Shown here one piece after another: positions 1,404 to 32,000 of a stretch of 32,000 bases of DNA (position 1 is the stretch's first letter; each line of letters starts with the position of its first letter). Source of the stretch: Methylocystis sp. (GTDB taxonomy: Bacteria; Pseudomonadota; Alphaproteobacteria; Rhizobiales; Beijerinckiaceae); NCBI GenBank assembly GCA_020252485.1, contig JADCCX010000041.1, positions 9,487-41,486 of the forward strand. The letters are read 5' to 3'. Below the pieces are notes generated by a model, which made no database searches, had not been told where the DNA came from, and saw nothing but the letters and a program-made list of their open reading frames with translations. The position numbers and the translations under genes are program-made.

Positions 1404-1420
1404 GTGTAATACTATTACAC
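1404..1420. promoter_or_regulatory. Perfect 8-1-8 palindrome GTGTAATA-C-TATTACAC, candidate Fur/Zur-family operator
   Basis: Read directly from the sequence. It is AT-rich in a GC-rich genome and lies in the 82-nt divergent region between the regulator (ATG 1375) and the COG0523 gene (ATG 1458). Confidence 0.5.
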
Positions 1421-1428
1421 TTCCCTGA

Positions 1429-1445
1429 GTGTCACAACATTACAC
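1429..1445. promoter_or_regulatory. Second, degenerate copy of the operator (GTGTCACAACATTACAC)
   Basis: Shares the GTGT...ATTACAC ends with the 1404-1420 palindrome, but only 5 of 8 arm positions pair. It ends 13 nt upstream of the COG0523 start. Confidence 0.3.
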
Positions 1446-1457
1446 CCTTGGGGGATC

Positions 1458-2677
<1,220 letters not shown>

Positions 2678-2681
<4 letters not shown>

Positions 2682-3115: not shown

Positions 3116-3145
3116 TCAACTGTCCCAATTATTCCGAGGCCTGAC

Positions 3146-4693: not shown

Positions 4694-4706
4694 AGGTTCG
4701 AGGCCG

Positions 4707-6586: not shown

Positions 6587-7410
6587 GCCTCGTTTTCGAG
6601 CCTGTCCGCGCGCGGAGCTTGCCGACTTCCATCTGGCCGCTGGCGGCGCTGGCTGGCCTTGCGCTGACCGGCCCATTCCTTGCGCCGCTGGACCCCAATG
6701 CGCAGGATCTGATGCGGGTCATGGAAGCACCGAGCATCACTCATCTGCTCGGTACCGATCATGTTGGACGCGACATTCTCTCGCGTGTCTTTGCTGGCGC
6801 GCCGCATTCGCTTGGGCTTGCTGTCCTGTGCGTGACGCTGGCATCCAGCGTGGGCGTCGCACTCGGGTTGATCGCGGCCAATGGCGGCGCGTTTGTCAGG
6901 GCGCTGATCATGCGGCTGGCCGATCTGATGCTGGCCTTCCCCGGCCTGCTGCTGGCGCTCCTCTTCGCCGGTTTCCTGGGTGGAGGCATTTGGCCCCTGC
7001 TCATCGGGCTCAACCTTGCGCTTTGGCCGCAGTACGCCCGCATGGCCGAGGCAGTGGCCACGAGCGTTCTCCGGGAAGGCCATGTCGAGGCGGCCCGGCT
7101 CGCCGGCTTTGCGGAGCGCACCATCCTGAAGCGCCATGTCCTGCCGCCCGTGCTGCGCGCGGTGATGCCGCTGGCTACGCTCGGCGTCGGGCAGGCCATC
7201 ATGTCGATCTCGGCGCTCGGCTTCCTCGGGTTGGGATTGAAGCCCCCAACGCCCGAATGGGGCGCCATGATCAACGAACTCCTGCCGTTCCTGGCCGAGG
7301 GTTTCGTGCAGATGGCCGCGCCCTGCGCCATGATTTTCGTATCGGTGCTGACCCTGACGCTGGCGGGCCGCGCGCTTGCCGCTGATCCCACGGGAGGTGG
7401 ACATGACTGA
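6583..7410 (+). CDS. ABC transporter permease (DppC/NikC-like)
   Basis: 275 aa with LGTDHVGRDILSRV, the motif characteristic of DppC/NikC permeases. ATGA overlap with the upstream gene at 6583-6586. Confidence 0.9.
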   Translation: MSLVFEPVRARSLPTSIWPLAALAGLALTGPFLAPLDPNAQDLMRVMEAPSITHLLGTDHVGRDILSRVFAGAPHSLGLAVLCVTLASSVGVALGLIAANGGAFVRALIMRLADLMLAFPGLLLALLFAGFLGGGIWPLLIGLNLALWPQYARMAEAVATSVLREGHVEAARLAGFAERTILKRHVLPPVLRAVMPLATLGVGQAIMSISALGFLGLGLKPPTPEWGAMINELLPFLAEGFVQMAAPCAMIFVSVLTLTLAGRALAADPTGGGHD

Positions 7411-13584: not shown

Positions 13585-16500
13585 TCAGATCGTCGCCACG
13601 GCCGGCGTGCCGCGCCCGATGGCGGTCGAGAGCTGGACGACGCGGACGGTGACGCTCGCCTGCGCCGATCCGAAATCGGCGACCTGCTGGGCGGCGGTGT
13701 AGATCGCGGCGGGCGCGGATGCGGCAAGCGTGCGCAGGACCGTCGAGCCGTTCATCACGTCGACCTCGTAGCGCTCGCTCTCCTCGTTGAGCGGAACGTC
13801 GGTCAGGTCCCGCCACCAGCCGCCGTACCGCGTGCGGCGGACCCAGCTGATCGACAGATCGCCCGAGCCGTTGCGCGCACCCCGGACATGTGCAGGCGAC
13901 CAAGGCTTCAGGGCTTCGCCGCCATTCGCGAAGCTGATCTGTCCAGACTGGTCGCCGGTTGGCCCTTGCGGCACGGGCGCGAACCGCCAGGCGATAGCGA
14001 GGCCGATGCTGGACGCCGAGAAGGTCGGGCGCTCAAGGCGGCCGGGATCAAGCAGCACGAAGCGCGAGCCGCTGGCGTGCGTCGCGATCCGGTGCTCCGT
14101 CCCGAGCCGCCCGCGCAGCAGGCGCGAGAGCCGATAGCGTCCAGGCCCGGTCAGCACCGCGTTGGCGAACTGGATGATCTCGCCATTGATCAGCGCGCCA
14201 TTGGCGCCATCAAGGATGCGGGCATCGGGCAGGCTTTCGAGCGAACCGAAGGCGAGTTGCACCTCGATCACATTGCCGTTGTCCCAGACATGCGCCGGTC
14301 CAGCCCCAAGCGCAGTCACCGTGTCGCCGATCACCGAGGCGACGTCGGCGACGCCGGAGACGGTGTAATCCAGCCCATCCGCCGTCGGCCTGAATAATGA
14401 GACGCCCCGGAACGGCGCGCCGCCGAGCGAGCAGGCGGCCATGTAGAAGGATGTCGCTTCGCCTGCCTCGGCTTCCGTCAGCAATGGCAGGTCCATCAGT
14501 TCCACCCGCGTCGGCGAGGCGGTATCCGGAACGTTCGGCTGCAGGTCGCCCGATCCGGTCGGGACGGTGACGAACTGCGGCAAGTCGCCGTCGGTCGCGA
14601 CGCCACGCACCAGCACGAGCCCCGGCTTGCCATAGGTCACGGACGTCACCCGGAAGCGGCGGATCGCGCCATCGACCGGCACCTCGATCACGTCCGTCGG
14701 ATCGATGCGGATCGCGCGCGTCGGCAGCTTGGCCTCGAGCGTGACGCGGCCCTGCCAGATTTCCCGCAAGGCACGCTGGGCAATGGTCTGTGCTTCCTCG
14801 ACCGAGAGAATGAGCGGCAGAGAGAAGGTGGTCACGCTGCGCGAAGTGCCGAGCTGGCGGCGACCCGTGACGGTCGAGCTCTGGTAGTCGCGGGCCTCGT
14901 CGAGATGCACGACATCGATCGAGATCGGCAACTCGACATCCTGCGCGCGCTCGATGCGGATGCGCGCCCGGTCGCCGTCGCCTTCCGCCGCGCCGAGATC
15001 ATTGGCGTCGATGGCGACGATGGTTCCGCCGCCGCGCTTGACGAAGCGCAATACCCCGCCACTCTCCACCGCGTCGAAGAAGAACGCGGTCTGCAGGACG
15101 GAGATCATCTCGCGCAGCGACTTGCGCTCGCTGACGACATAGCCCGAGACCTCGTCGGTGAGGCTCGTCACATCGATATCGGCATTGGAAAGCCCGGCGC
15201 AAAGGCACAGATCGCGCACGATCTCGGAGAGCTGCATGTTGCCGATCTTTCCCTGAACCCAATGGCCGAGGCGGTAATTGTCGCCGTCCTGCCAGACCCG
15301 TTTCAGCGACGGGAAGAACGGGTAAGGCCGCGCGTCCCAGCACCAGAGGAAGCGCGGCCCGATCATCCGCCGCCCCTGGCCGTCGAGCGGATTGTTCGCC
15401 GGATCGCGCCACCAATCCTCGGTGCCCTTGATCGCGACGCGCTGGACCACGCGGTCCACGGATCGGTTCGAGTACCAGGGGTAGAAGCTTTCCGCCGACT
15501 TCGGGTCGACGAAGACGTTCGGGCGGTTCGGCGAGCAATGGACCGACGGAAAGCCGTATTCGGTGAGCCAGACCGGCTTCATCCGCGGCGTCCATGCGCT
15601 CGCAGGTCCTGTCGGAACGCCATTCACGCGCGGCGTGTGGGCGTTGTCCCACCACCCGCGCAAGTCCTTGATGGCCCAGAACGGCTCGCTGATCGGCGAC
15701 TGGACGCGGTTGGAGCCGCGCCCGGCAAGATCGCGGTCAGCCTCGCTGGAATAAAAGTAGCTGATCAGTTCGCCTGAACCCCAGCCCGCGCCGATGGTCG
15801 CCGGGTCGGTCAACGAGCGGTCGCTGTCAGTGACAGGGAAGTAGGCGTCGATTCCAACCGCATCGATGTTTGGGTCGGCCCAGAGTGCGTCGAGCGGGAA
15901 GTCCACATTCGCCCCGCCACGGTCGTTGTAGCGGTACTCCGACCAGTCGGCGGCGTAGGTGACGGTGCAGTTCGCGCCGAGCCGGGTCTTCGCCTCCGCC
16001 GCGATCTGCCGCCAGAACGGCACGGCGGGATAGGCTCCGCTTCCGTCCCGGATGCGGTTGAGGCCGACCATCTCCGAGCCGATGGCGAAGGCGTCGACGC
16101 CGCCCGCCTGTTCGCACAAGGTCATGCAATGGCGGATGAAGCGCAGATATCCCGCCGGACGGGTGAAGAACCCGGCGACATCCGCCGCAGCGCCCGTGAT
16201 CCTGCCCCGCCAGGGGAACGGGGCCGGATCGGGCGGCGGAATGTCCATCATGATGAAGGGATAGAAGAGGACCTTGTAGCCCCGCGCCTTCAGTTCCTGA
16301 ACCGCCCGGATGACCGAACCGTCGCTGATCGTGCCGCCATAGGACAGGGCGGACTGCCCGTTCGGCAGCGTGTAGGAGGTGACGACTGGCCAGACCGACC
16401 GTCCTCCACCCGCGACCGACCAGAGATGCGGCGCGGTCTCACCCCCGAACGCACCCGACTGACCTTGCGCGTACTCGCATTTGGGCACGAGATCGCAGGT

Positions 16501-17406
16501 CGCAACATCGATCGATGTGCCGAACCAGGCGTAGACGAAGTTGATCCATTCGACATTCGGCAGTTCGCGCTTCAGGTTGTCGATCGAGACGAGGAAGTCC
16601 GAGCGCTTCGTGCCGGTGTTGGCGTTGATCGCCGCCTGCGATCCCGCCGAGCCGTGACCGACCTTGCGCACGATCTCGGTGTCGGTGACGAATTCGCCCG
16701 AGGCCGGGATCAGGCAGACGCCCGCGACGAGGTGGCGCGCATTGCCTGGATCGTCCGAGCCCCGATAGACCTCGACCTCGAAGTTCGGAAATCGATTCCC
16801 GAACGGCGTGAGCTTGAAGTCCTCCAGCATGACCGTGACGAGGCCGCGATGGGCTGGCGTCCGGCCAGCGCCTTCGACCGCCGCGACCAGCGGATCGGGT
16901 GACTGCGCTTCCTCGCCATAGCCGACCCGGATCGCGCTGACATGCTCGGGATCGAGCATCGTGTTGTTGACCCAGATCCGGTAGACCGCCGTGACCGGGC
17001 CTTCGCAGACGCCGAGCAGGATGTCGGCCGAGTATTCGTAGCGCGTGCGCACTGTGGTCTGGCGGCGACCGCCGCCGCTGCCGCTGCCCTTGCCGCCACC
17101 GCCCGTGGTCTCGGTTTCAGTGATCGCGGTCTCCTTGATGCCGCGCACCCAGATGATGTTGGCCGCGATGCGCCCGCGTCCCCAGACCCTCGGGATCGGC
17201 TGGCCATAAGCAGAGCCCGAGACCTGCAGATCGGTGACGCGCGCGCCCTCGCTCCTGGTGACGGCCGCGGGACCGGCGCCGAACAAATCCTGCTCGATCG
17301 CCGCGCCGAGATAGGACCCCAGCATCGCGCCCGCCGCCTGGCCAAGCCCGCCGCCGATGGCGTTGCCCGCCCAGGCGCCGGCGACGGTCAGGATGAGTTG
17401 CGCCAC
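13585..17406 (-). CDS. RcGTA g15-like host-specificity / baseplate protein (GTA TIM-barrel-like domain plus phage tail domain)
   Basis: 1273 aa with a GTG start. It has the Gly-rich N-terminal module, a central region with glycoside-hydrolase-like TIM-barrel character (VLFYPFIMMDI..., AFAIGSEMVGL, WLTEYGFPS) and a C-terminal tail-protein region, matching large g15-type proteins of alphaproteobacterial GTA and phage clusters. Confidence 0.88.
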   Translation of the reverse strand: MAQLILTVAGAWAGNAIGGGLGQAAGAMLGSYLGAAIEQDLFGAGPAAVTRSEGARVTDLQVSGSAYGQPIPRVWGRGRIAANIIWVRGIKETAITETETTGGGGKGSGSGGGRRQTTVRTRYEYSADILLGVCEGPVTAVYRIWVNNTMLDPEHVSAIRVGYGEEAQSPDPLVAAVEGAGRTPAHRGLVTVMLEDFKLTPFGNRFPNFEVEVYRGSDDPGNARHLVAGVCLIPASGEFVTDTEIVRKVGHGSAGSQAAINANTGTKRSDFLVSIDNLKRELPNVEWINFVYAWFGTSIDVATCDLVPKCEYAQGQSGAFGGETAPHLWSVAGGGRSVWPVVTSYTLPNGQSALSYGGTISDGSVIRAVQELKARGYKVLFYPFIMMDIPPPDPAPFPWRGRITGAAADVAGFFTRPAGYLRFIRHCMTLCEQAGGVDAFAIGSEMVGLNRIRDGSGAYPAVPFWRQIAAEAKTRLGANCTVTYAADWSEYRYNDRGGANVDFPLDALWADPNIDAVGIDAYFPVTDSDRSLTDPATIGAGWGSGELISYFYSSEADRDLAGRGSNRVQSPISEPFWAIKDLRGWWDNAHTPRVNGVPTGPASAWTPRMKPVWLTEYGFPSVHCSPNRPNVFVDPKSAESFYPWYSNRSVDRVVQRVAIKGTEDWWRDPANNPLDGQGRRMIGPRFLWCWDARPYPFFPSLKRVWQDGDNYRLGHWVQGKIGNMQLSEIVRDLCLCAGLSNADIDVTSLTDEVSGYVVSERKSLREMISVLQTAFFFDAVESGGVLRFVKRGGGTIVAIDANDLGAAEGDGDRARIRIERAQDVELPISIDVVHLDEARDYQSSTVTGRRQLGTSRSVTTFSLPLILSVEEAQTIAQRALREIWQGRVTLEAKLPTRAIRIDPTDVIEVPVDGAIRRFRVTSVTYGKPGLVLVRGVATDGDLPQFVTVPTGSGDLQPNVPDTASPTRVELMDLPLLTEAEAGEATSFYMAACSLGGAPFRGVSLFRPTADGLDYTVSGVADVASVIGDTVTALGAGPAHVWDNGNVIEVQLAFGSLESLPDARILDGANGALINGEIIQFANAVLTGPGRYRLSRLLRGRLGTEHRIATHASGSRFVLLDPGRLERPTFSASSIGLAIAWRFAPVPQGPTGDQSGQISFANGGEALKPWSPAHVRGARNGSGDLSISWVRRTRYGGWWRDLTDVPLNEESERYEVDVMNGSTVLRTLAASAPAAIYTAAQQVADFGSAQASVTVRVVQLSTAIGRGTPAVATI

Positions 17407-17417
17407 GGATCGGACCT

Positions 17418-18050
17418 TCAGGCGGTGAGTTCGAACGAGAAGTTGGGCAGGCGGTTGCCGAAGGGCGTGATCGCGAAGCGTTCCAGCACCACATAGGCAA
17501 GTTCACGATAAGCTGGCGCGAGGCCCTCGGTCGCCGCGATCAGCGGGTCCGCCGATTGGGTGGCGTCGCCGAGATAGACGCGCCGCGCGGCATAGTGCTC
17601 GGAGCCGATGGCGTTGCCGTCTGCGAACATCTTGCCGATGCCGGTGATGGGCCCTTCGCAGAGCGCAACCGCAACATCGCAGAAGTAAACGTAAGTCACT
17701 GTCGTGGTGGTCTGCCGGCCGCCGCCACCGCCGCCCTTGCCGCCGCCGCCCACCGTCTGTGTCTGGGTTCGCGTCTCCTCGTCGAAGCCGCGCATCCAGA
17801 TCACGTTGCCGGAGAGCCTCGCCTTGCCATAGACGCGCGGGATCACCGAGCCGTAGCCGGATGACTGCACGCGCAGATCCTGCAGGCGCGGGCCGGTGAC
17901 GACGTTGTTGCGCGCGCCTTCGCCGAACAACTGCTGATCGATGATGCCGCCGACATAAGAGCCGATGGCCCCACCGATGGCTTGGCCGAGGCCCGGCAGA
18001 AGCAGGTTGCCGAGCACCGCACCGCCGACGGTTAGGACGATGCGCGCCAT
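17418..18050 (-). CDS. Stand-alone paralogue of the N-terminal module of the g15-like protein
   Basis: 210 aa from ATG 18050 (TGATG overlap with the upstream stop). It aligns end to end with residues 1 to about 213 of the next gene, e.g. LTVGGAVLGN/LTVAGAWAGN, GGGGKG, LCEGPITG/VCEGPVTA, TPFGNRLPNFSFE/TPFGNRFPNFEVE. Confidence 0.75.
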   Translation of the reverse strand: MARIVLTVGGAVLGNLLLPGLGQAIGGAIGSYVGGIIDQQLFGEGARNNVVTGPRLQDLRVQSSGYGSVIPRVYGKARLSGNVIWMRGFDEETRTQTQTVGGGGKGGGGGGRQTTTTVTYVYFCDVAVALCEGPITGIGKMFADGNAIGSEHYAARRVYLGDATQSADPLIAATEGLAPAYRELAYVVLERFAITPFGNRLPNFSFELTA

Positions 18051-18484
18051 CAGGCGATCCCTGGCAGGCGAAAGGCGGCGCGGGTCTTCTCGATCCAGAA
18101 CCCGGTCAGGTCCTGTTCGACGACCGCGCCCGCCTCGCGGTAGCAATGCAGCAGGCGATTCCCATCGCTCAGGAACCCGCAGTGATGGGCCGGACCCTTG
18201 CCGACGCCGAACAGCAGGATGTCGCCGGGCAAAGCATCGGCGATGTCGATCTCGGCGGCATGCTCGGCCATCTCGTCGCGCAGGCGCTCTTCCGCCCGGT
18301 AAAGTGGCCAGGTCGCGGCGTAGTTCATCGGCTGGATGATCGCGCCGACGAACGGCTCGGCCGCACCGCGCACGAAGCCGATGCAGTCGCAGCCCGCGCG
18401 CTTGACTGCCGCCTGATGATGCCAGGGCGTGCCGATCCAGGTGCGCGCCTCGATCAGAAGCGCGGCCCGCGTGAACGTGCTCAT
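18050..18484 (-). CDS. NlpC/P60-family cell-wall peptidase (RcGTA g14-like)
   Basis: MSTFTRAALLIEARTWIGTPWHHQAAVKRAGCDCIGFV... contains the catalytic Cys context, followed by PGDILLF and GPAHHCG. ATG 18484 overlaps the hub gene stop (ATGA). The ORF-track start 18595 lies inside the hub gene. Confidence 0.85.
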   Translation of the reverse strand: MSTFTRAALLIEARTWIGTPWHHQAAVKRAGCDCIGFVRGAAEPFVGAIIQPMNYAATWPLYRAEERLRDEMAEHAAEIDIADALPGDILLFGVGKGPAHHCGFLSDGNRLLHCYREAGAVVEQDLTGFWIEKTRAAFRLPGIA

Positions 18485-19320
18485 GAGCGCACCGGATAGG
18501 AGAACACCTTGTCGTTCCCCGGAATGTGCGGCTCGCCCCGGAAGTTCAGGATATTGGCGAACTTGGCGTTGCAGGTCTCGGGTGTCTTGTCGCATCCGGC
18601 GGCGAGCACGATCTGGTCGCCGACCACGATGGGGCGCGGCATCGGCACGAACAGCCGGATGGTCTGGCCGTCATGCAGCAGCACCTCGTTGACCGCGCCC
18701 GCATTGGCGCCGGTCGTGAAGGTCGCCTTGCCGAAGGTGAAGAAGGCGGTCGCGCGCGCCGTGACGATCCGCACCATGTCGGCGGCGATCACCTGCGTCA
18801 CCGCGTAGGTGTCGGTGCGCGGGCCGAGCGCCACGCCGCATTCGGTCGATCCGAGATCGACGCGGCACAGGCGCGAGTAGAGCTTGCCGGCAGTCTGTGC
18901 GAGCTGGTTCGACAAGCCCCTGATCTCGGCAGAGAAGCGCTGATCGGCGCGCTTGATCTCGCCGAGAAAGCCCTTGCGCAGCAGGAGCCGCCCCTGCGCG
19001 AGATCGGCCCAGTTGACAATGAAGACCTCGATCCGCGCGCCGTCGAACAGACCGGCGATCAGGTCTTCGGCCCGGAGCGCCGCATCGTCGAGAAAGCCGT
19101 CGACATCGAGGTTGTCGACGGAGAGATCGGAAGCGGTCTTGATTGCTGAGGGCAGGAAGCCGGTCGACGCCACATAGGTCAGCCCGTCGACGACAAGCTC
19201 GCGGTCATGGTCGGTGAAGCCGCGAACCCAGCCATCGGCCCGTTCGAGCCGCCAGCAGGTCGCAAGCGTCGTCACCTCGCCGGCAAGATGCGCGGCGAGC
19301 GCGGGGGATGCTGATTTCAT
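18481..19320 (-). CDS. DUF2163 / BR0599-type tail hub protein (RcGTA g13-like)
   Basis: LATCWRLERADGWVRGFTDHDRELVVDGLTYVA near the N-terminus and CDKTPETCNAKFANILNFRGEPHIPG near the C-terminus are the hallmarks of this family. Confidence 0.85.
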   Translation of the reverse strand: MKSASPALAAHLAGEVTTLATCWRLERADGWVRGFTDHDRELVVDGLTYVASTGFLPSAIKTASDLSVDNLDVDGFLDDAALRAEDLIAGLFDGARIEVFIVNWADLAQGRLLLRKGFLGEIKRADQRFSAEIRGLSNQLAQTAGKLYSRLCRVDLGSTECGVALGPRTDTYAVTQVIAADMVRIVTARATAFFTFGKATFTTGANAGAVNEVLLHDGQTIRLFVPMPRPIVVGDQIVLAAGCDKTPETCNAKFANILNFRGEPHIPGNDKVFSYPVRS

Positions 19321-19604
19321 GAATCGGTTTCTTGTGGATGTCGGGTCGTGCGGGGGATAGGTACGGGTCTCAGCGCTCAGAGGGGTCGCAATGCGCCCAT
19401 AGCTGTCGTTAAAGTGCGCTTCGACTGTTTGCTGAACCGGACGTCGGAAAGCAGCCGCCTACTGGATCGGCCATTTACCTTTCTGCTTAAGAGGTACGAC
19501 AACGGTGGGCACAGCGCCTCCTGCTCATCGTTCTTGAACCGACAACAGCCGGAACCTTAACCAAGGCCGCCTCCAGCCTTTCAAAGGCCAATGGAATTGC
19601 AAGC

Positions 19605-19632
19605 TTGTCAAGCCAAGCAAACCGCGTAAACT
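19605..19632 (+). promoter_or_regulatory. Candidate sigma70-type promoter TTGTCA-N16-TAAACT for the 82-aa ORF
   Basis: Read directly. The -10 element ends 24 nt upstream of ATG 19657. Pattern match only. Confidence 0.3.
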
Positions 19633-19656
19633 GCCAACTCTCTGGGGGTTGAGACT

Positions 19657-19905
19657 ATGCTGCGGATCAGAGTCGAAGGTGACAACGAACTTCGGGAGGG
19701 CATTCGCCATCTAGCAAACAGCGCGGGCGATGATACCATAATAAGTGATGAGCGTGGTGCCACCGGCGTAGAGATACTTCAACTCGTCCTTCTGTACGGC
19801 CCTCCAGCCGTTGCACTCTTGAAGCAGATCATCGAACTGATCGAAGCTGGAAATAACGTTCGAAAGAAATGGAAAGTATCAATTGAGGGAGATGGGGCTT
19901 CCTGA
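19657..19905 (+). CDS. 82-aa hypothetical protein in the cargo island (possible EACC1-like small component)
   Basis: ATG with GGGGG 8 nt upstream; plus strand, opposite to the phage operon. The sequence MLRIRVEGDNELREGIRHL...GATGVEILQLVLLYGPPAVALLKQIIELIEAG...KWKVSIEGDG has no TM or HTH that I can assign. Confidence 0.5.
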   Translation: MLRIRVEGDNELREGIRHLANSAGDDTIISDERGATGVEILQLVLLYGPPAVALLKQIIELIEAGNNVRKKWKVSIEGDGAS

Positions 19906-20051
19906 CAGCATCGCTTGAATTTCGTTGTAAGATTGCAGTCTCAGTTTAACGGTATTTCCCTAGCTCAGTAGTACTAAGCGGCACATCCGCTCGGTTGTCT
20001 TCGGGCTCAAGCGCCAGCATCGAACCACCAGTTTGGAACCGAAATCTGGAG

Positions 20052-21461
20052 TTAGCGCCCCTGTTGTGTCACGAGGCAGGCGACAGTTTTCGTCAAGGGG
20101 TTGAGTGCCGTGATGACGTCGTTCGCTATCCGGACAATATCGTTCGAGCCTGTTGGAATTGGCCTGAGTCGCCAGTAGTCCAACCAAGACTGCAGTCGGA
20201 GGTTTTGCTCAGATGAACCTCCGACGTTCTCGGCAACGGAGAGCACGAAAGCAATTGCCCAGGCGGTGCCGACCACGGTGAAAGCTGGTGGTACTTCGAA
20301 TTTATGCATCTGAAAGAGGCAATTTTCTAGCCCAACCATATCGCAGAATACTTCTTCTCGAAGTCCCTCTGCTGCAGTCTGTGGCAAAGCTTGGTGGACA
20401 AGCGACAAAATATCTTTAACCCAGTTGCATGATTGGTCTTTGATTGCATAGTGCCCGAATTCGTGACCCATAAGGAAGTGAAACGCCACAGACTCACAGT
20501 AGCTAAACATCCATTTCTCTTCAGAGATGGCTACACGTTCCGTTCGATCAGCTATCAGCCGATCCAACACTTCAGTTGCAGCGGATGGCCCGAAAACATC
20601 TCTAAGTTCCCTCGCACATCGCCGAAACATGCCTCGGGCGCCAGCGATTTCCCCCGATAAGCGAGGCGGCAAGTTACTCGACAATGTGTTGGAAGCGTCT
20701 TGCTCTTTGTCTAACCAGTCGATTAGTGCTTGCGTTGGCTCCAATCCAGAGGCAATCAGATGGTACAAAGAAAGCGATATCTCCTGAACGAGCATTCGGT
20801 CTATACAGAAAAAACATACTAAGTTCCCTTTGTACGGCTTGCCGTACCAATCAGTCATTTTGTCCTTTTTGCTCAGACGCAAGCATGCGGTGTAAAAGTC
20901 CGTGCCCTCAACCAACAAACCTTGATAGGATGTCAAGTTAAATAGGTTTAGAGCCGACCTCCAACAGTCAAATTCATGAAAGAATTCACCATATAAACTA
21001 GATGCTGCCAAGGGAGTAAAAACTTTCTTGTCAGGAAGTAATTTCTTTACGATTTCTTCTATCCAAGGTTGACCAAAGTCACCAAATGACATTTTTACCG
21101 GCATCCCTGTGTTTCGATCTAATCGGGTTAAAATAGTATTCGGTCTCAACAAGCGAATTATCTGTAGAAGTTTCATTTGCAGATCGTCGTCGCTCATGGC
21201 GCGCCCCATGCTAACCTGTCGAGCTACACTCTCTGCTGCTTCGGATATCAGTGCAAGCTTTTCGTTTAGGATCGTGGCCACCTTGCCGCGAGTACGAGCG
21301 ATGCTGCGTGCGGCCTCGGGCGAAGTGTCGTGTCCAGCGCGATGTCCGAATTGGATTGAAGATGGTAGGAGTGCCAACTGCCGATCCTCGCGTGAACTCC
21401 TCGAGGCGATCTTTCCGCTGGCGGCCAATACCGCAACGCGGATCGCTCCACTTCCGGACAA
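20052..21461 (-). CDS. Orphan HEXXH (ImmA/IrrE M78-like signature) protein with a large unknown N-terminal region
   Basis: HEFGH at 20451-20465 (AFHFLMGHEFGHYAI), then EEVFCD about 32 residues later. AT-rich codon usage. The start is uncertain: TTG 21461 (GGGAGGA 5 nt upstream) is chosen here, with GTG 21476, TTG 21428 and ATG 21209 as alternatives. The ORF-track start 21815 lies inside the distal tail gene. Confidence 0.7.
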   Translation of the reverse strand: MSGSGAIRVAVLAASGKIASRSSREDRQLALLPSSIQFGHRAGHDTSPEAARSIARTRGKVATILNEKLALISEAAESVARQVSMGRAMSDDDLQMKLLQIIRLLRPNTILTRLDRNTGMPVKMSFGDFGQPWIEEIVKKLLPDKKVFTPLAASSLYGEFFHEFDCWRSALNLFNLTSYQGLLVEGTDFYTACLRLSKKDKMTDWYGKPYKGNLVCFFCIDRMLVQEISLSLYHLIASGLEPTQALIDWLDKEQDASNTLSSNLPPRLSGEIAGARGMFRRCARELRDVFGPSAATEVLDRLIADRTERVAISEEKWMFSYCESVAFHFLMGHEFGHYAIKDQSCNWVKDILSLVHQALPQTAAEGLREEVFCDMVGLENCLFQMHKFEVPPAFTVVGTAWAIAFVLSVAENVGGSSEQNLRLQSWLDYWRLRPIPTGSNDIVRIANDVITALNPLTKTVACLVTQQGR

Positions 21462-21472
21462 CAAATCCTCCC

Positions 21473-22054
21473 TCACGCCCTGATCTCGACCAGCGGGATC
21501 GACTGGACGTTCTGCAGGTTGTAGGCGCGTGAGATCACTTGAAGGTGGTCGGTGTCGAAGCGCACCGGCACGTCGAAGCGGAAGGTCGCGACGGGCGTCG
21601 CCGCCGGAGCCGCACCGAATGTGAGCCGCCCGGTCGCGTGATCGATGGTCGGCGTGACGACGTTCCCGTTGACGCGCACGACCACCGAGCCGACGACCGG
21701 GCGGGTGATGGTACGGATTTCGACGACGGGACCGGACGGATAGCGCTTCACCAACTGGAACACCGTCGCGCTCACCCCCTGGCATTGCTGGTCGGTGGCT
21801 TCGAAGTCGCCCCAATCCCTGAAGCGGAAGCCAAAGGCGCGGCCCTTGCGGGCGCGGAAGAAGGCAATCACCTCGGCCATCTGCTCGCGCGTGCGGATGC
21901 CGGTCGAGATGTCATACTTTGCGCGCGAGGCCGCCCAGTTCTGGTTGCGTTGCTCGAAGCCGGACGCGACCATCACCACGTCGGTCGAGTATTCCGGACC
22001 GCCCGTCGCTCCGCGCGCGATGGCGTCCGGGAATGACACATCATGGAAGCTCAC
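21473..22054 (-). CDS. DUF2460-type distal tail protein (RcGTA g12-like)
   Basis: MSFHDVSFPDAIARGATGGPEYSTDVV...SGFEQRNQNW...RFDTD matches the TIGR02217/DUF2460 pattern. The GTG start overlaps the tape measure stop (GTGA at 22051-22054). Confidence 0.85.
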   Translation of the reverse strand: MSFHDVSFPDAIARGATGGPEYSTDVVMVASGFEQRNQNWAASRAKYDISTGIRTREQMAEVIAFFRARKGRAFGFRFRDWGDFEATDQQCQGVSATVFQLVKRYPSGPVVEIRTITRPVVGSVVVRVNGNVVTPTIDHATGRLTFGAAPAATPVATFRFDVPVRFDTDHLQVISRAYNLQNVQSIPLVEIRA

Positions 22055-25000
22055 AGGTTGCGCCTCGCTCGTTCAAGCGCCGATGCCATCTCGGCGGTGA
22101 TCTGTCCCTGCGCGCGGCGGAACGAGCCAGCATCCGGCGTTGTGATGTTGAAGGTCACCACCATCGGCACGGCCTGATCGCCCCGCTGGTCGTACGCGGC
22201 GGTTTCCTTACGGTTCAGCACCCGCTCGCCGGTTTGCAGGATGGCCGGGACCTCGCCCGGCCGGATGTAACCGCCGCCATGAAGGCGCGGCGCGCCTGCG
22301 AACAGCATCGCGGGGATGTGCCGTCCGGGTCCGCCCGCACCGACCAGCCCGCCCTCGTGGAATAGTCCGGCGAAGATCTTGCCGAGTTCGCCGAAGATGC
22401 CGCCACCGGTCGCCAGCGTCGGCGCGTTGCCGCCGAACAGGAAGTTCTTGAGCGGGTTCATCACGGCGAGCTTGATCAGCTCGTTCATGATGTCGTTGAT
22501 CGCCGCCTGGCCAGCGTCTGCCCACGATTTCCAGTCGGTCTTGCCTTGCGCCAGGAGCGTGCCGAAGCGGTCCAGCGCGTTGCCGATCGCGCCCTGAAAG
22601 GCCCGCTGGGTCCCTTCCTGCCGCTGCAGCTCTGTCGTGAGCTGCTGCACCCGGACGGCGTTGGCGACGATCGCCCGGCCTTCCTCGCTGGCGAGGTCGA
22701 TGCCGCGTCGCCGCAGATCCTGTTCGGCCCGGATGGTGGCCAACACCGTCTCGCGCTGCTGCGTGGATGCGCCGATCAGGCCGATCTGGGTTTCGATCAG
22801 GGCGATCTCGGCGCGCTGATCCTGCAAGGCGACTTGCGCCTCCGCTTGGCGTTCAAGCGCGAACTGGCGCCTTGCTGCGGCAAGCGCGGCCTGTCCCTCG
22901 GCTCCAGCCGGATCGATTCCTTGCCGTCGGAGCTGCTGCTCGGCGCGGATCATGGCGATCGCTTCCGAGCGGGCCGAGGCTCCCTGCTTCAGGAGCTCGA
23001 CCTCGCGGGCAAGACCGGTGTTCTGCTGCTCGTAGTCGAAGGCCGCCTCGCGACCCGTCGTCTGCCGCCCAAGCTGGTTGAGCCGCCGGATCTGATCGCG
23101 GGAATAGCTGGCCTCGGGATCGTTCGGATCGATCCCGAGCCGCCTCAGTTCCTGCTCAAAACGCAGCTGATCGACGCCCTCGCGGCGTGCGGCAGGGCCG
23201 CGCCTGACCAGCGACAGTTCCCGCTCACGCAGCGCGATCTCGTCGCGGCGTCGCTCGATGCCCTGAAGCAGGTCCGTGCGGTTCTGCTCGCGGTGAAGCT
23301 GCTCATAGGCTTCACGCGTGCGGTCGATGATGCGGCCGAGCTTCTCCTTGGCCTCGCCTTCGGCCAGCGTCTGCGCCGTGACCAGCGGGCGCAGCGCCTG
23401 CTCGACCTGCATGATCTGCTGGGCGCGCTGGGACGACAGCGCGCCCGAGGAAATCGCCTCGTTCAGACGGCGCTGACCGTCTATCTGACGGCCCAGTTCC
23501 GACACTTGCCGGGCGGCCTCGACCGCCTGTTCGGCGATCCGTTCCCTTAAAGCCTGCCGCGCGCGGGTCTCCGCGTTGACACCTTCGCGGGCCTGATCGA
23601 CGAGCCCCTGGCGGCGTGCTTCCGCGCGTGCGGCGGCCTCAGTGCTTTCGAGATAGGCCTCGGCCAGCGAAAGCGTCGCGCGGATCGAGATGTCCGTGGC
23701 GGAGGTCTGCTCCACCACGGCCTGCGTCGCCGCATCCACCGAGGGGCGATACCGGGCGAGTTCGGTGATGACACGCCGGTAGGCCGCTTCGACCTCCGCC
23801 ACGTCCGCCAGTTTCGAGCGGACCAGCGGATCGGCAAGCGCGGCGCGGAGTACGCCTTCCTGCGTCCGCAGCCGCTCGATCTCGCGCGCGCCGGGGTTGG
23901 TGTCGCGGGCGATGTCGCCGGCCCGCACTGACTGCTCGTTGGCGCGGGCCTCCTCTGCGATCCGCCGCGCGCGCTCCTGCTGGTCGTTCAGTTGCCGTTC
24001 GAGTTCGGCGATGCGCCGCTCGACCTGAGGCAGCATCAGCGGCACGACATTGCCGCGCACGTTCGCCCTGAGGCGCTCCTGCTGCCAGCGCAGCAGCTCC
24101 AGCTCTTCCGTCGGCGTGCGGCCATCCACCGCCCGGTCGACGGCCTTGCCGAGCGCGTCGAAGGCGTTCGAGGCCGAGCGCCCGACGAACTGCCAGGCCC
24201 GGCCGAGCGCATTGACCGCCTGTTCGGCGTCGGCCAGCGAGGGCGCGAGCGCATTCAGGATGACGCGCTGCGCCTCCGCCCGGTTGTTCTGGTCGACCAG
24301 CGTGCGGACATAGACGCGGGTGCGATCGTCCAGGAACCGGATGCGATCGTTGAGTTCATCCGCGCCGCGAAGTGGATCGGCCAGCGCGCGGGCGAGTTCC
24401 TCTGCGCCTTGCTTCGTGTCGACGCCGAGCGTGACGCCAAGATTGCGCGAGACCGCAATGGCGCGGCCAATCTCCTCCGCGCCGATCTTGCCGGTGCGCA
24501 GGAATGCGACCTGCATCTCGCGAGCCGACGAGACCGAGACCTTGCCGGCATCGGCGGAGGATTGCGCGACCTGTTCCAGCTGCGCCGCGGTCGTGCCGGA
24601 CGCGCGGCCAACGCCTGCGAGCGCCGTGGCGACCGCCCGCGTCGAGGCGTCATTGGCGAACCACGCCGCCGTGAGCACGGCAACCGATACGGCGACGCCC
24701 GCGATGACGCCGCCGAAAACGCCGATGGCGGAGCCGAGCGTCATGATCGTGCCGCGCAAGCCGCCAAAGGCCTGCGTCACCTGTCCGCCCTGCTGCATCA
24801 GGATGGTCATCGGCGACATGCCGGTGGACATCGACGCGATCACGTCGTTCACCGTGTACTGAAGCGTCATGACCTGCTGGGTCGTGAGCTTCGAGTTGGC
24901 GCCGACGCCCTTGATCGCCTGCGCGGTCTGATCGAACCGCGACTTCGCCAGCGCGTTCGCCGCCGCCTGCTCGGCGGTGGTGATCGCGCCCCGGCTGGCG

Positions 25001-25407
25001 AGCGCGGCATGCTCGGCAAGTTCGGCATTGAGCCGGTCCTGCGCTGCCGCCAGCGGATCGATGGCAGCGCGCAAGGCTTTCGCGCGAGCCTCGTAGCGTT
25101 CGGCTTCCCTCGCGGCCTGTTCGAAGACTTCTGCCGAAGCGCGCGCCGAACCCGCCGTCTGGCGATCAACCCCCAGAACCTGATTGAACCGCCCCTGCGC
25201 GGCATCGGCCTGCGCCGCCATGCGGGCGGCTTCCGCCAGACGCTTGAACCGGGCGGTTTCCCGATCGGTTGCGGCTCCCGTCTTCTCAAGCGCCCGGTCG
25301 ACCTGCCCGAAGGCCTGCGTGCCCGCCTGACCCACCTCTTCGAAGGCGCGCTTGACCTCCGCCTTGCCTTCGACGCCGAGGCGGATCGAGACTTGGGTGG
25401 TGGACAT
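22051..25407 (-). CDS. Tail tape measure protein
   Basis: 1118 aa, Ala/Arg/Glu/Gln-rich and predicted helical, with a central hydrophobic Gly-rich segment (GSAIGVFGGVIAGVAVSVAVLTAAWF). Located after the chaperone pair and before the distal tail gene. At about 0.15 nm per residue this implies a tail of roughly 170 nm (inference). Confidence 0.9.
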   Translation of the reverse strand: MSTTQVSIRLGVEGKAEVKRAFEEVGQAGTQAFGQVDRALEKTGAATDRETARFKRLAEAARMAAQADAAQGRFNQVLGVDRQTAGSARASAEVFEQAAREAERYEARAKALRAAIDPLAAAQDRLNAELAEHAALASRGAITTAEQAAANALAKSRFDQTAQAIKGVGANSKLTTQQVMTLQYTVNDVIASMSTGMSPMTILMQQGGQVTQAFGGLRGTIMTLGSAIGVFGGVIAGVAVSVAVLTAAWFANDASTRAVATALAGVGRASGTTAAQLEQVAQSSADAGKVSVSSAREMQVAFLRTGKIGAEEIGRAIAVSRNLGVTLGVDTKQGAEELARALADPLRGADELNDRIRFLDDRTRVYVRTLVDQNNRAEAQRVILNALAPSLADAEQAVNALGRAWQFVGRSASNAFDALGKAVDRAVDGRTPTEELELLRWQQERLRANVRGNVVPLMLPQVERRIAELERQLNDQQERARRIAEEARANEQSVRAGDIARDTNPGAREIERLRTQEGVLRAALADPLVRSKLADVAEVEAAYRRVITELARYRPSVDAATQAVVEQTSATDISIRATLSLAEAYLESTEAAARAEARRQGLVDQAREGVNAETRARQALRERIAEQAVEAARQVSELGRQIDGQRRLNEAISSGALSSQRAQQIMQVEQALRPLVTAQTLAEGEAKEKLGRIIDRTREAYEQLHREQNRTDLLQGIERRRDEIALRERELSLVRRGPAARREGVDQLRFEQELRRLGIDPNDPEASYSRDQIRRLNQLGRQTTGREAAFDYEQQNTGLAREVELLKQGASARSEAIAMIRAEQQLRRQGIDPAGAEGQAALAAARRQFALERQAEAQVALQDQRAEIALIETQIGLIGASTQQRETVLATIRAEQDLRRRGIDLASEEGRAIVANAVRVQQLTTELQRQEGTQRAFQGAIGNALDRFGTLLAQGKTDWKSWADAGQAAINDIMNELIKLAVMNPLKNFLFGGNAPTLATGGGIFGELGKIFAGLFHEGGLVGAGGPGRHIPAMLFAGAPRLHGGGYIRPGEVPAILQTGERVLNRKETAAYDQRGDQAVPMVVTFNITTPDAGSFRRAQGQITAEMASALERARRNL

Positions 25408-26862: not shown

Positions 26863-28110
26863 TCAATAAGACGCAACGTCATTTGTGAGCACGCAGGTCG
26901 CGGCGCGGTTCAGCACCGGATCGATCGCGGCCTGAAAGGCGAACGGGGCCTGCACGCCGCCCGGCCCCTGGATCTGCCGGTCGCCGCGCGGCAGGAAGAC
27001 CCGGTGCGCTGTCCAGACCAGCGAGGCGGCCGCGCCAGCCGCCCAGCGGAACTGCAGCTCGCAAGGCAGGCGGTTGGTCGCCTGATCGAGAAGGACGCGG
27101 TCCTCGAAGCGGGTGGTGATGTTGCCGGTGAGCGCGATGATGCCCGGATCGGCATCGGCGATGCGCCCGTCGCTTCGGATCACCTCGACCGCTTCGAGGT
27201 TGTTCGAATAGGTGAGTTCCGCCGAGATGACGTTGCCGAGCGCCACGTTGTTGCGGCGGACCTCGCCCTGGAACTGGCCGAAGCGCTCCAGCACGAACTC
27301 GGAGAGCGTGCCGGACTGCGCCGTCGCGGCGATGGTCTCGCCCTGCGCCATGATGTTGAGCGAAGCGGTGAGCAGCCCGGATCGCTGCGCCTGAACCTGG
27401 AAGCTATTGATGCGTGCGCCGTAGTTCATGCCGAAGAAGGGCACATCGGGAAGCTGGACCTCGATCGACATCGAAGGCAGAGCCTGCGCGCCCGAGAACC
27501 AGGTATGGCTGTTGGCGCCGCCCGACAGCGTCGCCCCCGACAAGGTGGCGCGCGTCGGCGCGTTCGTCGCCAGCGTCCGCGCATTGCCGCCCGGTCCCAG
27601 CACCTTCGCGGTCAGGGTGACGACTGCGCCCGCCGCCGCGGCTGCAACGTTCGCGCTCGGATTGATGATTGCGGCGAGCGCGGTGGCGGTGAGCGCCGCC
27701 GTGCCGCCAAGGTTGAACTGCTGGCCCGTCGCGCCAGAAGCGACGGCGGTATAGACCGTGCCATCGACCGTCACCGTGTCGTTGACCAGAAGGTTCGCGT
27801 TCAACGTGATCGTTCCAGTCGCGGCGTTCGCTGCGACTGTCGTCGGCGCGCCCATCAGGCCGCGCAGCCAGACGCCGATGTTGCGCGTATCCACGGGAAC
27901 GACGAGATCGCCCATGTTGGTGATCACGTCATAGACCGGTGTCAGAGGCTCGCGGCCAAAGCCGAGAAGCTCGCTAGCGATCAGGCCCTGCTCCTCGCCG
28001 AGATTGACGGAGGCGAAGGGCATACGGCGAAAGCCGGTGCCGGGCGGTGTGCCATAGGTGCTTTCGAACACGGCGGCGAGAGCCGCGTTCACGCCGCGTG
28101 CGCGAGGCAT
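26863..28110 (-). CDS. Major tail (tube) protein with a large Ala/Thr-rich insertion
   Basis: 415 aa. Its position between the tail terminator-like gene and the chaperone, together with its beta-rich N- and C-terminal parts, fits a tail tube protein. Assigned mainly by synteny. Confidence 0.7.
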   Translation of the reverse strand: MPRARGVNAALAAVFESTYGTPPGTGFRRMPFASVNLGEEQGLIASELLGFGREPLTPVYDVITNMGDLVVPVDTRNIGVWLRGLMGAPTTVAANAATGTITLNANLLVNDTVTVDGTVYTAVASGATGQQFNLGGTAALTATALAAIINPSANVAAAAAGAVVTLTAKVLGPGGNARTLATNAPTRATLSGATLSGGANSHTWFSGAQALPSMSIEVQLPDVPFFGMNYGARINSFQVQAQRSGLLTASLNIMAQGETIAATAQSGTLSEFVLERFGQFQGEVRRNNVALGNVISAELTYSNNLEAVEVIRSDGRIADADPGIIALTGNITTRFEDRVLLDQATNRLPCELQFRWAAGAAASLVWTAHRVFLPRGDRQIQGPGGVQAPFAFQAAIDPVLNRAATCVLTNDVASY

Positions 28111-29991: not shown

Positions 29992-31953
29992 TCACGCGCC
30001 GGGATTGCGATAAAGGCCGCGCCAGTCGATCGCCTTCGCGCCGAAGTCGAGGCGGCACTTGATCTCGACACCGTCGACATCGAAGCCGTTGCGCGTCTCG
30101 ATGTAGGCGCCTTGCTGGCCTTCGAGATAGGCGTACTCGATGGTGTCGATCTGGGCGGGGTTCGCGGCGAGGTACCAGGCTGTGAGGCTCGCGGCGTCGA
30201 GACGAGGCTCGGCGATCGGCGTCAGAGTGCGGATCGAGGACGGGACCACGCTGCCGGTCTGGGCCGGCACCAAGTTCTGCGCCACGAGCTGCTCGGCCGC
30301 GAGTTCGAGCGATGCCGGCACGATGAGGTAGGCGGGCCGGACATTGAGGATCGTCTTCTTGTCGAGGCCGGTCTGCCGGGCCATGGCCGCGCGCGCCGCG
30401 CCGATCGCGGTGACGCTGAGCGCGGTGGCCGGGTTCGCCAGATTGCCGTGGTTTTGGTGGAAAAGCGCGATGGAGTCGCTCATGGCGGCGTTGGCCAGAA
30501 TGATGCCCCAGACCACGTCGCTCTCCAGCGTGGCGATCGCCGTGCCATACATCGCCGGGATACGAGTGAAGGCGTCGAGATCGTCGTTGATGAGGACCTG
30601 CCGGGTGACCGCGACGACGCGCCCATAGGTCTCGACACGGTAGCTCTCGCGCCCTTCGGCGAGGGTGCCGCGCTTGAACTCGCCGCCCTCGTTCACCTTC
30701 ACGAGCTGCGGGGCTTCGCCGAGCTGGACACGATGCATCGCCTTAAAGTCGGTCGCGAGCACCTGCCGGCAGAAGGGAACGTAGGTGCGCGGATAGGCGT
30801 CGTAGGCCTGCCGTAGCGTCTTGCCCGTCACGGCGGCAAGAACCTCGGGGAAGTCCGAGGTGGAATGGAGAGCGCGCGTGGCGATCTCGTCGCGCGACAT
30901 ACCGCGGATATTGACGCCCGAGCTTGAGAGGAACTCGCGGGCGTGCTCCACCAGCGTCATGCCGCGATATTCCCGCGCCGACTCGCTCAGCGGGAAAAGC
31001 GTCGGCGAGTAGCGGTGCAGAAGAGCGTTGGACACGGCGTCACGACGGGTGACGCGTTCATCGCGGCTGCCGAGCGGGATGCTGACCTGAGGCGAGACCC
31101 GCGTCTTCTCGGCGTCGGTCGCGACCTTGTCGAGGATCTCGCTGCGCGCTGCATCGAGCGTGACGCCGCGCTTGACGAGATCGTCGGCGAAGCTGCGCTC
31201 GAGGTGCAGGCGACCGGCAAGATCGTAGATGGTGCCGACACGTTCGCGCTCCTTGTCGCGCGCGCGGGCGGCGATCGTCTCAGCATCGATCACCGGCGCG
31301 CTCGATGCGCGATCCTGCGGTTGAGGCGCGGCCTGGCGCGTCTGCGTTTCGGTGTTGTCAGTCACAGCGTCGTCCATGGCTGCTTTCTCCTTGGATGGAG
31401 CGTCGGCACGGTGGACGACGCAGGGGTAAAGGGGTTCGTCGGCGCGGAAGCCTGCCGCCGGATCAGCGCCGATCGGCACTGCGGAAATCTCGAAGGGCGT
31501 CCAGTCGACCGCGCGCCACAGCTCGGGTGCGCCCGCCTGCTTGGTCACCTCGAAGCGATGGACCTGGTAGCCGATCGAGACCGCACGGATGTGTCCGGCC
31601 TCGACGTCCTTCCAGAGCGGTTCGACTTCGGTCCGGTCGGAGAAGCGGACACGGGCGATGCCGCGTCCGTTCTCGATGCGAGCGCTGCCCGGCACGACCG
31701 AGCCGATGACGCTGTCGAGCACGGAGGCGTCATGCACCTTCAGGAGCGGCGCGCCGGCATTCAGGCGATCGAGCCGGACGGCGCGCGGATCCATCGCCAG
31801 TTCCTCGTCGAACGGATCGCCGAAGAAGGGATTGCGGCGCACGCGCGCGCCTGTGGACCAGACCACGTCGATGGTGCGTTCGGCCGCATCGATCGACGCA
31901 GGCAACAGGTCCGCCGCCCGCGTCAGCGGTGGCAGGTCGATGTTTCGGGTCAT
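29992..31953 (-). CDS. Prohead protease / major capsid protein fusion
   Basis: The N-terminal ~190 aa carry HK97-type prohead protease motifs (LLKVHDAS...VIGSV...GHIRAVSIGYQ). A charged linker/scaffold-like segment follows, then a ~350-aa capsid-like C-terminus ending ...YLEGQQGAYIETRNGFDVDGVEIKCRLDFGAKAIDWRGLYRNPGA. ATG 31953 is preferred over the ORF-track TTG 31959. Confidence 0.82.
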   Translation of the reverse strand: MTRNIDLPPLTRAADLLPASIDAAERTIDVVWSTGARVRRNPFFGDPFDEELAMDPRAVRLDRLNAGAPLLKVHDASVLDSVIGSVVPGSARIENGRGIARVRFSDRTEVEPLWKDVEAGHIRAVSIGYQVHRFEVTKQAGAPELWRAVDWTPFEISAVPIGADPAAGFRADEPLYPCVVHRADAPSKEKAAMDDAVTDNTETQTRQAAPQPQDRASSAPVIDAETIAARARDKERERVGTIYDLAGRLHLERSFADDLVKRGVTLDAARSEILDKVATDAEKTRVSPQVSIPLGSRDERVTRRDAVSNALLHRYSPTLFPLSESAREYRGMTLVEHAREFLSSSGVNIRGMSRDEIATRALHSTSDFPEVLAAVTGKTLRQAYDAYPRTYVPFCRQVLATDFKAMHRVQLGEAPQLVKVNEGGEFKRGTLAEGRESYRVETYGRVVAVTRQVLINDDLDAFTRIPAMYGTAIATLESDVVWGIILANAAMSDSIALFHQNHGNLANPATALSVTAIGAARAAMARQTGLDKKTILNVRPAYLIVPASLELAAEQLVAQNLVPAQTGSVVPSSIRTLTPIAEPRLDAASLTAWYLAANPAQIDTIEYAYLEGQQGAYIETRNGFDVDGVEIKCRLDFGAKAIDWRGLYRNPGA

Positions 31954-32000
31954 GGGCAAAAGCTCAGGTGTCGGGATTGATGGGTTGGCCGGTCGTTTCA

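Follow-up and report, generated by a model that had tools for sequence, protein, structure and literature searches.

A low-GC two-gene cassette in the tail operon of a Methylocystis prophage encodes a rare HExxH protein and a small acidic partner, a candidate conflict module

The window analysed here is a stretch of 32,000 nucleotides from Methylocystis sp. (NCBI GenBank assembly GCA_020252485.1, contig JADCCX010000041.1, positions 9,487 to 41,486 of the forward strand), and positions given below count from its first letter. An exact look-up traces it to metagenome-assembled genomes (MAGs) of Methylocystis sp. Pfam assignments identify its minus-strand genes as the structural module of a siphophage-type prophage, and between two of the tail genes lies an insert of low GC (guanine plus cytosine) content that carries a gene pair. 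One member (20052..21197, minus strand; NCBI MCA3584641.1, 'hypothetical protein') encodes a cytoplasmic HExxH/ExxxD protein of 381 amino acids (aa), a probable zinc metallopeptidase of the gluzincin type. The other (19657..19905, plus strand; NCBI MCA3584640.1) converges on it and encodes an acidic protein of 82 aa with a pI of 5.0. Both genes are genuine and the pair is conserved, the larger protein has invariant residues of catalytic type, and the family is rare and resides on mobile or variable DNA. The HExxH family is uncharacterised and zincin-like, has a dedicated partner, and travels as swappable prophage cargo.

The extent of the HExxH gene required correction. The minus-strand open reading frame (ORF) is indeed open from 21815 to the stop at 20052, as stated in the initial annotation, a reading made from the sequence alone; there the frame was taken as a protein of about 470 aa whose start abuts the stop of the tail gene. 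Of the starts proposed in that annotation, GTG 21476, TTG 21461 and ATG 21209 are present in the sequence. However, every homologue matches a start at ATG 21197, where the MSDDD N-terminus fits the MS(D/N/K)... N-termini of the family (the closest relatives have 383-401 aa), and the NCBI annotation begins at the same codon to give 381 aa. The in-frame extension (21198-21476) has a flat GC by codon position of 0.63/0.56/0.59, versus 0.52/0.40/0.51 in the gene, and its first ~55 nt belong to phage backbone that also occurs in sister prophages with unrelated cargo. On these grounds the gene is assigned to 20052-21197, and GTG 21476, TTG 21461 and TTG 21428 were rejected as starts; the start is most likely ATG 21197, with ATG 21209, four codons upstream, as a possible alternative.

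Since this start lies 275 nt downstream of the tail-gene stop, the translational coupling proposed earlier does not apply, and the GGGAGGA once read as a ribosome-binding site falls within the shared backbone. The cargo-specific portion of the 275-nt leader (21198..21415, minus strand), which has flat codon-position GC and is missing from all homologous proteins, is probably not translated and may be presumed to carry signals for the gene's own expression; a simple scan of this portion found no sigma-70-like site. The absence of a signal peptide and of any clear transmembrane segment from the HExxH protein agrees with the initial annotation.

The insert (19321..21472; 2,152 bp) is placed by the GC profile and by an empty site exactly between the TGA of the DUF2460 gene on its left flank (21473..22054, minus strand; Pfam E 3.5e-65), which encodes an RcGTA g12-like distal tail protein, and the ATG of the baseplate hub gene on its right flank (18481..19320, minus strand; Gp84_N plus BR0599, DUF2163, g13-like; Pfam E 3.7e-61 and 9.8e-29). 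The initial annotation had correctly recognised the adjoining gene as a distal tail gene but made no mention of the low GC of the insert. Across ~19,330 to 21,400 the GC of the window drops from 0.67 to 0.39-0.53, and in the empty site of Rhabdaerophilum calidifontis (L007) the two tail genes are joined as TGA-CCC-ATG, with flanking proteins 98% and 96% identical to those of the window. The module has a GC of ~0.51 whatever its host, the hosts having 0.67 and 0.61.

Both ends of the insert consist of conserved phage backbone. The left 'bracket', ~55 nt (21416..21472, minus strand), was delimited by blastn and by alignment with L042 and L036, which carry other cargo; it holds GGGAGGA and TTG 21461, and GTG 21476 lies just outside, overlapping the tail-gene stop. 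The right 'bracket', ~85 nt directly upstream of the hub ATG (19321..19405, minus strand), was found by alignment with the same two loci. A check of the insert ends for target-site duplications and terminal inverted repeats gave none that were convincing.

Different inserts, of 1.3-2.7 kb, occupy the same DUF2460-hub junction in eight further loci (L008, L013-L015, L018, L036, L039 and L042), and the sequence of a ninth (L009) stops within its insert. In phages near-identical to that of the window, the cargo is an AsnC regulator with a serine hydrolase (L008), an ArsR regulator with a major facilitator superfamily (MFS) transporter (L036), a MarR regulator with a YdeI-like protein (L042), or two unknown genes (L009). 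The HExxH gene is absent from L007 and from all 35 other g12-g13 loci examined. The insert is thus a foreign-composition insertion, a horizontally acquired two-gene cassette in a cargo slot of the tail operon; the empty site, the other cargo in L008, L009, L036 and L042, and the GC of 0.51 against 0.67 mark it as a moron, or accessory cargo, with weak evidence for a promoter. More generally, related alphaproteobacterial phage or gene transfer agent (GTA)-like clusters repeatedly carry cargo at the g12-like/g13-like junction.

The HEFGH motif (20451..20465, minus strand) lies on a predicted active-site helix, and EEVFCD (20340..20357, minus strand) follows 32-33 residues downstream on a helix predicted at 281-303. 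Residue numbers follow the 385-aa form in the family alignment (A2), from which 4 is subtracted for the 381-aa protein. In this numbering the first motif supplies H249, E250 and H253, and the second supplies E286, a putative third zinc ligand, with D290 four residues on to complete E-x-x-x-D. All five residues are unchanged throughout 22 relatives whose identity to the window protein is 15-44%, and the motif pair noted in the initial annotation is therefore not a chance occurrence. S240, H244, F245, G252, N296 and W317 are likewise invariant in the 22-sequence alignment, and W49, E79, Q96, E285, C289, C297, Q300, P307 and R338 are at least 90% conserved. An HExxH motif with E-x-x-x-D 30-38 residues on is the signature of gluzincin peptidases, as in thermolysin (E166/D170) and neprilysin (E646/D650). 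The conserved HExxH and downstream glutamate (ExxxD), present in the 22 sequences, constitute a zincin signature that is probably catalytic. On this basis the protein is probably a gluzincin-type zinc metallopeptidase, with zinc binding and peptidase activity predicted from the conserved residues.

An AlphaFold2 (AF2) model built with the family alignment is a single compact body, with a predicted local distance difference test score (pLDDT) of 87.5 and a predicted template modelling score (pTM) of 0.89. Its elements run from a helix at 66-86 through strands at 95-101, 108-113 and 130-137 and some 90 residues of helices to the helix that carries HEFGH (228-255) and the helix that carries EEVFCD...NC..Q (281-303). 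This order fits a zincin core with an insertion. The initial annotation had imagined a sensor domain fused to a peptidase, a picture that is not supported; with the corrected start the N-terminal part has ~245 residues and, in the model, contributes a helix and a three-stranded sheet before the active-site helix of the same compact body.

Despite searches of Pfam, NCBIfam, PHROGs, PADLOC and PDB sequences with both the protein and the family profile, only sub-threshold matches on the HExxH motif were obtained (M48, E 0.22; CapP, E 0.055 and 1.5; M78 in one relative, E 0.0089). The family makes up 4 clusters in an index of 5.8 billion proteins, and among 1.84 billion representative proteins it forms 26 clusters at 50% identity. 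Scans of 185,579 species, with one genome each, and of IMG/VR found no relative, and a scan of JGI metagenomes returned 4 loci only, 2 of them new. One member (P0011; 534 aa) has a C-terminal extension of ~150 residues with weak matches to tetratricopeptide repeats (TPR).

In every other locus of the window's subclade (L001/L002, L004-6, L054 and L055/56), proteins of 79 aa with 49-53% identity to the 82-aa partner are encoded convergently, 10-14 nt past the HExxH stop, and a convergent gene for 79-82 aa is present in all five distinct loci of the subclade. The HExxH protein had been described as an orphan with no adjacent partner. The observation that no XRE-type gene is adjacent holds, as no XRE or other helix-turn-helix (HTH) repressor occurs in the insert and the conserved neighbours have no Pfam domain; the conserved, non-HTH 82-aa gene, convergent at 19657-19905, shows that the protein is not alone. 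The other subclades (L043/44, L045-48, L049-52, L053 and L076/77) have a gene for 102-109 aa directly upstream on the same strand, which overlaps the HExxH start or ends at most 3 nt from it in five of five distinct loci. In one relative (P0007; 487 aa), the small partner is fused to the N-terminus of the enzyme through an acidic linker.

The two groups of small proteins are collinear, with a strand, a helix, '(K/R)(G/N)L(T/D)G', a hydrophobic helix-Pro-helix and a 'K..K(I/V)' strand in the same order, and the helix-Pro-helix forms a conserved hydrophobic core of the family. The partner also has a conserved ENP(T/S)xE / VDN segment. An hhalign comparison of the groups (36 vs 5 sequences) gave a probability of 71% and E 3.6e-5 over the N-terminal half. 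With a hidden Markov model (HMM) of the longer group, the short partners were the top non-self matches among 5,329 ORFs, but with E about 1. Homology of the two groups is thus probable on these profile comparisons, though not proven. Proteins of both groups are acidic (pI 4.5-5.9), and neither group has a Pfam match or an HTH. The ~105-aa family comprises 38 clusters. Foldseek matches of the partner to PII and ferredoxin-like folds (best E 0.8) were discarded as not meaningful. A promoter-like site (TTGTCA-16-TAAACT; 19605..19632, plus strand) matches the consensus 25 nt upstream of the partner gene; it is one site, compared with 1.6 expected by chance, and is weak when taken by itself.

The window and the other loci of its subclade have only the HExxH gene and the partner gene in common. 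In L001/L002, genes for 266 and 419 aa (L001 11539-13777), neither with a Pfam match, lie between the module and a Tiamat gene and are absent from the window. Remnants of these two genes, which follow the module in L001, were sought in the window and none was found; the unit therefore consists of two genes. In one locus (L054 10254-11486, from a 4.79-Mb assembly), the HExxH gene is broken up among three reading frames next to an intact gene for the 79-aa partner, which reflects either a pseudogene or indel errors of the long-read assembly.

The small-protein family is also found with a second class of HExxH protein. Proteins of ~550 aa are encoded directly after a gene of the ~105-aa family in three loci (L069 9299-10975, L070 9326-10969 and L072 9323-10975). 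They contain HELGH followed 63 residues on by EGLADIFAA, a segment that matches the M78 Glu-helix motif with E 3.5e-4. The class has no Pfam or PADLOC match, its partner has no PADLOC match, and homology between the 385-aa and 550-aa classes could not be demonstrated beyond the motif. Because the ~105-aa family precedes this class as well, the small protein accompanies at least two very divergent HExxH enzymes. In L072 the gene of the 550-aa class lies 2.6 kb from a short prokaryotic Argonaute (pAgo) system, with an IS110 element between them. A PADLOC match to mad3 (MADS) beside the 550-aa class in L070 was rejected, being recF next to gyrB, and the other neighbours there had no PADLOC match.

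The survey of homologue neighbourhoods that the initial annotation had recommended places the relatives on mobile elements, some of them beside known defence systems. Homologues of the window protein are found on an integrative and conjugative element (ICE) beside Tiamat, and next to integrases and insertion sequence (IS) elements. The module directly follows an integrase in L049, where ParA, resolvase, HNH and STAND-like ATPases are nearby; it lies beside IS transposases in L043 and L053, beside a resolvase and a UvrD-like helicase in L055, and beside a patatin in L046. In the AT-rich locus L003 (homologue P0004), the gene directly downstream on the same strand (1381-4218) encodes a protein of 945 aa with an N-terminal phosphoribosyltransferase (PRTase) domain, identified by a weak PRTase-CE match; this domain type is seen in conflict systems. 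The module is a mobile, patchily distributed unit that tends to occur in variable or defence regions.

The remainder of the prophage structural module is encoded on the minus strand. It includes a protease-capsid fusion of 655 aa (29992-31959), in which a prohead protease-like region (weak S78 match) is joined to a major capsid domain (Phage_capsid_4), as well as genes for a head-tail attachment protein, a DUF6441 protein, the tail tube (26863-28110), a tape measure of 1,118 aa (22051-25407), an NlpC/P60 peptidase and a host-specificity protein of 1,273 aa (13585-17406). Between the NlpC/P60 gene and the host-specificity gene lies an ORF for a glycine-zipper protein of 242 aa (17418-18146), a stand-alone paralogue of the first 213 residues of the 1,273-aa protein (48% identity, E 1e-45) that is also present in Rhabdaerophilum (L007 7760-8488). 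Outside the prophage, at 1458-8830 on the plus strand, co-directional ORFs of 407, 515, 309, 317, 275 and 484 aa resemble a host operon.

Since the pair is foreign cargo, has relatives on mobile elements, and has some relatives beside known anti-phage systems, it is better regarded as a candidate for a new module of conflict or defence than as an ImmA-like peptidase standing alone. That the cassette is a mobile protease-partner conflict module, composed of a 381-aa zinc metallopeptidase and its 82-aa acidic companion, is given about an even chance. A protease-partner switch is proposed because the residues of catalytic type do not vary, the protein is cytoplasmic, and it has an obligate small companion, whether adjacent, overlapping or fused; that the two proteins interact physically, which of them controls the other, and that they act in defence are what we infer beyond these. 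The small acidic protein would be an obligate companion that forms one module with the protease and might hold it inactive in the manner of an antitoxin. Alternatively, it could be a substrate or signal relay, the part that ImmR, CapH and CalpT play for their proteases. Infection by another phage, for example, would then act as a trigger and unleash the protease on the partner or on some essential target of host or phage. The outcome could be exclusion of competing phages or elements, or abortive infection as with Lit of e14, to the benefit of the lysogen or the element. Because the protease gene has the same orientation as the tail operon and the partner gene the opposite one, late read-through of the operon might raise protease mRNA and at the same time make antisense RNA to the partner.

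A more specific form of this proposal is put forward tentatively, as somewhat doubtful. It would have the pair act as an as yet undescribed two-component anti-phage or inter-element conflict system, in which the small protein gates a zinc protease of novel fold or is processed by it, and in which the small-protein family serves as a 'constant' adaptor for at least two HExxH enzymes (~385 and ~550 aa) and moves as swappable cargo of the tail slot.

Several observations weigh against the conflict-module interpretation. The HExxH protein matches no defence model in PADLOC-DB 2.0, the one hit being CapP (E 0.055) on the motif. A Foldseek search with the AF2 model, one of the checks suggested at the outset, returned no zincin or other fold match in the PDB or BFVD, and the assignment to a zincin fold is for that reason one that we infer. 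Modelled by itself with AF2, the 82-aa partner gave a poor result (pLDDT 58), homology between the small-protein groups has only moderate support, and toxin-antitoxin-like pairs do not typically converge as the two genes do in the window's subclade. Defence neighbours occur at some loci only, in a sample too small for statistics, and the cargo of the slot elsewhere consists of regulators paired with hydrolases or transporters and includes no defence genes. The suggestion of exclusion or abortive infection made in the initial annotation fits the homologues on mobile elements and those adjacent to defence systems, although it is not proven by them.

The cassette might instead be an anti-repressor unit of the ImmA/IrrE/CapP type, in which DNA damage or another signal leads the peptidase to cleave a small non-HTH regulator and so switches genes of the element on. 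The HExxH helix and the Glu-helix pattern E-x-x-[AC]-[ND]-x-[FV]-[AG] resemble M78 at the motif level, and in most subclades the partner gene lies directly upstream and overlaps, as in immR-immA and capH-capP. However, the partner has neither an HTH nor any Pfam domain, the window protein has no PF06114 match at any reported level, and the module sits in a tail-operon cargo slot rather than an immunity or regulatory region; the two-gene unit also moves among unrelated contexts with no constant third gene to regulate, and this explanation is considered unlikely. A similarly low probability is assigned to a plain toxin-antitoxin addiction module, with the protease as toxin and the acidic protein as antitoxin, that stabilises mobile DNA and has no anti-phage role. 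Such a module would account for a small, acidic partner encoded upstream and overlapping the start in most subclades, and for a patchy, rare distribution on ICEs, integrase islands and a prophage. Yet the natural fusion in P0007 and the convergence throughout a whole subclade are unusual for type II toxin-antitoxin pairs, and L054, where a frameshifted protease gene stands beside an intact partner gene, demonstrates no more than that loss of the protease is possible. As many toxin-antitoxin pairs have a defence role too, the addiction hypothesis overlaps with the conflict-module interpretation.

The near-identical prophages that hold AsnC with a serine hydrolase, ArsR with an MFS transporter or MarR with a YdeI-like protein in the same slot raise the question of a host-benefit moron unrelated to conflict, that is, a peptidase with a physiological substrate, for example in stress or peptide turnover. 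This is given a slim chance, as strict coupling to a dedicated partner, extreme rarity, and mobile-element and defence-island neighbours are a better fit to conflict systems. The start codon proposed in the initial annotation would imply a phage peptidase associated with the tail or with lysis, its translation coupled to that of the distal tail gene, an idea that draws on the shared strand and on an ORF that stays open across the tail-gene stop. However, the start is 275 nt downstream of that stop, a prophage with flanking proteins 96-98% identical lacks the gene and has its tail genes joined by 3 nt, and the relatives occur in non-phage contexts, none having been found in the viral contigs of IMG/VR. 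This idea is accordingly far-fetched, and a role in the virion is very unlikely given sister prophages without the gene and no relative in IMG/VR.

A metalloprotease with a partner on a mobile element is a known theme. Should the pair prove to be a functional protease-partner switch, a new zinc protease family and a new kind of small partner would join ImmA/ImmR, CapP/CapH, Lit and CalpL/T among the protease-based immune and regulatory modules of mobile elements, and the two genes, at 1.55 kb, would offer a compact and readily tested system. If it is a plain peptidase moron, the value of the analysis would lie mainly in the corrected annotation (start codon, partner gene and insertion boundaries). 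The DUF2460-DUF2163 junction of these alphaproteobacterial phages, with its conserved brackets, is a handy site at which to seek further accessory and defence genes.

Among the closest known systems is the ImmA/IrrE/CapP group (MEROPS M78, PF06114, COG2856), with its partners ImmR, DdrO and CapH; CapH/CapP is described in bioRxiv 10.1101/2022.04.27.489752. The shared features are a cytoplasmic HExxH enzyme with an 'hF..aHE.GHy' active-site helix, a glutamate ~30 residues on in the pattern E-x-x-[AC]-[ND]-x-[FV]-[AG] (E-x-x-A-N-x-F-A in M78, E-x-x-C-D-x-V-G in this family), and genes on mobile elements beside a small dedicated partner gene, usually just upstream. In an hhalign comparison of the family alignment with 12 phage proteins annotated as ImmA/IrrE, DUF955 or COG2856 (set A8), a probability of 50.7% and E 1.6e-4 were obtained over 16 columns only ('hFxxaHElGHyxl'), so profile similarity does not extend across the whole catalytic domain. 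The HMM check against Peptidase_M78/DUF955 that had been proposed gave no PF06114 match at E<=1 for the window protein (gathering score, 22 bits), and 2 of the 22 relatives had sub-threshold matches, the best at 16.3 bits (E 0.0089). The only PDB match of the family profile is CapP 7t5t, on the same motif (HELGH; E 1.5). When HEFGH and the EEVFCDMVGLENC that follows it 32-33 residues on are set against E..AN.FA..LL.P of M78, the E, small, N/D and small positions correspond and F-A and LLxP do not; the glutamate motif is ExxCD here and ExxAN...LLxP in M78. The window protein is also more than twice the size of an M78 domain, with ~245 conserved residues before the motif, and its partner is a non-HTH acidic protein. 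Membership in M78 is therefore not established by these comparisons. The resemblance to ImmA/IrrE claimed in the initial annotation holds at the HExxH motif, where the 16 hhalign columns and the CapP hints agree, and 'ImmA/IrrE flavour' is a fair description of what appears to be a likeness limited to motifs.

The window protein has no detectable sequence or Foldseek similarity to any solved zincin, and compared with the classical gluzincins an additional ~90 residues of helices separate its sheet from its active-site helix. Its predicted elements nevertheless follow one another as in that group (backing helix, three-stranded sheet, active-site helix, glutamate helix), and HExxH with E-x-x-x-D and invariant H, E, H, E and D are shared with thermolysin (M4), neprilysin (M13) and the minigluzincins. 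The e14 prophage of E. coli encodes Lit (Peptidase_U49), a zinc protease with HExxH whose cleavage of EF-Tu is set off by the Gol peptide of T4. Lit acts without a dedicated partner gene and has no sequence relationship to the window protein, which matched neither Lit nor U49 in Pfam and PADLOC. However, both are prophage-borne, cytoplasmic HExxH proteins carried as accessory cargo, and Lit offers a model for abortive infection by such an enzyme. Defence proteases that act on an adjacent small partner are found in type III CRISPR systems as CalpL-CalpT-CalpS and Csx29-Csx30. These belong to unrelated protease classes (Lon-like and caspase-like), and no cyclic-nucleotide sensor or CRISPR association was seen at the window family; the likeness is one of analogy, in that a protease is encoded with a small neighbour that serves, or in the Methylocystis cassette may serve, as its substrate or relay.

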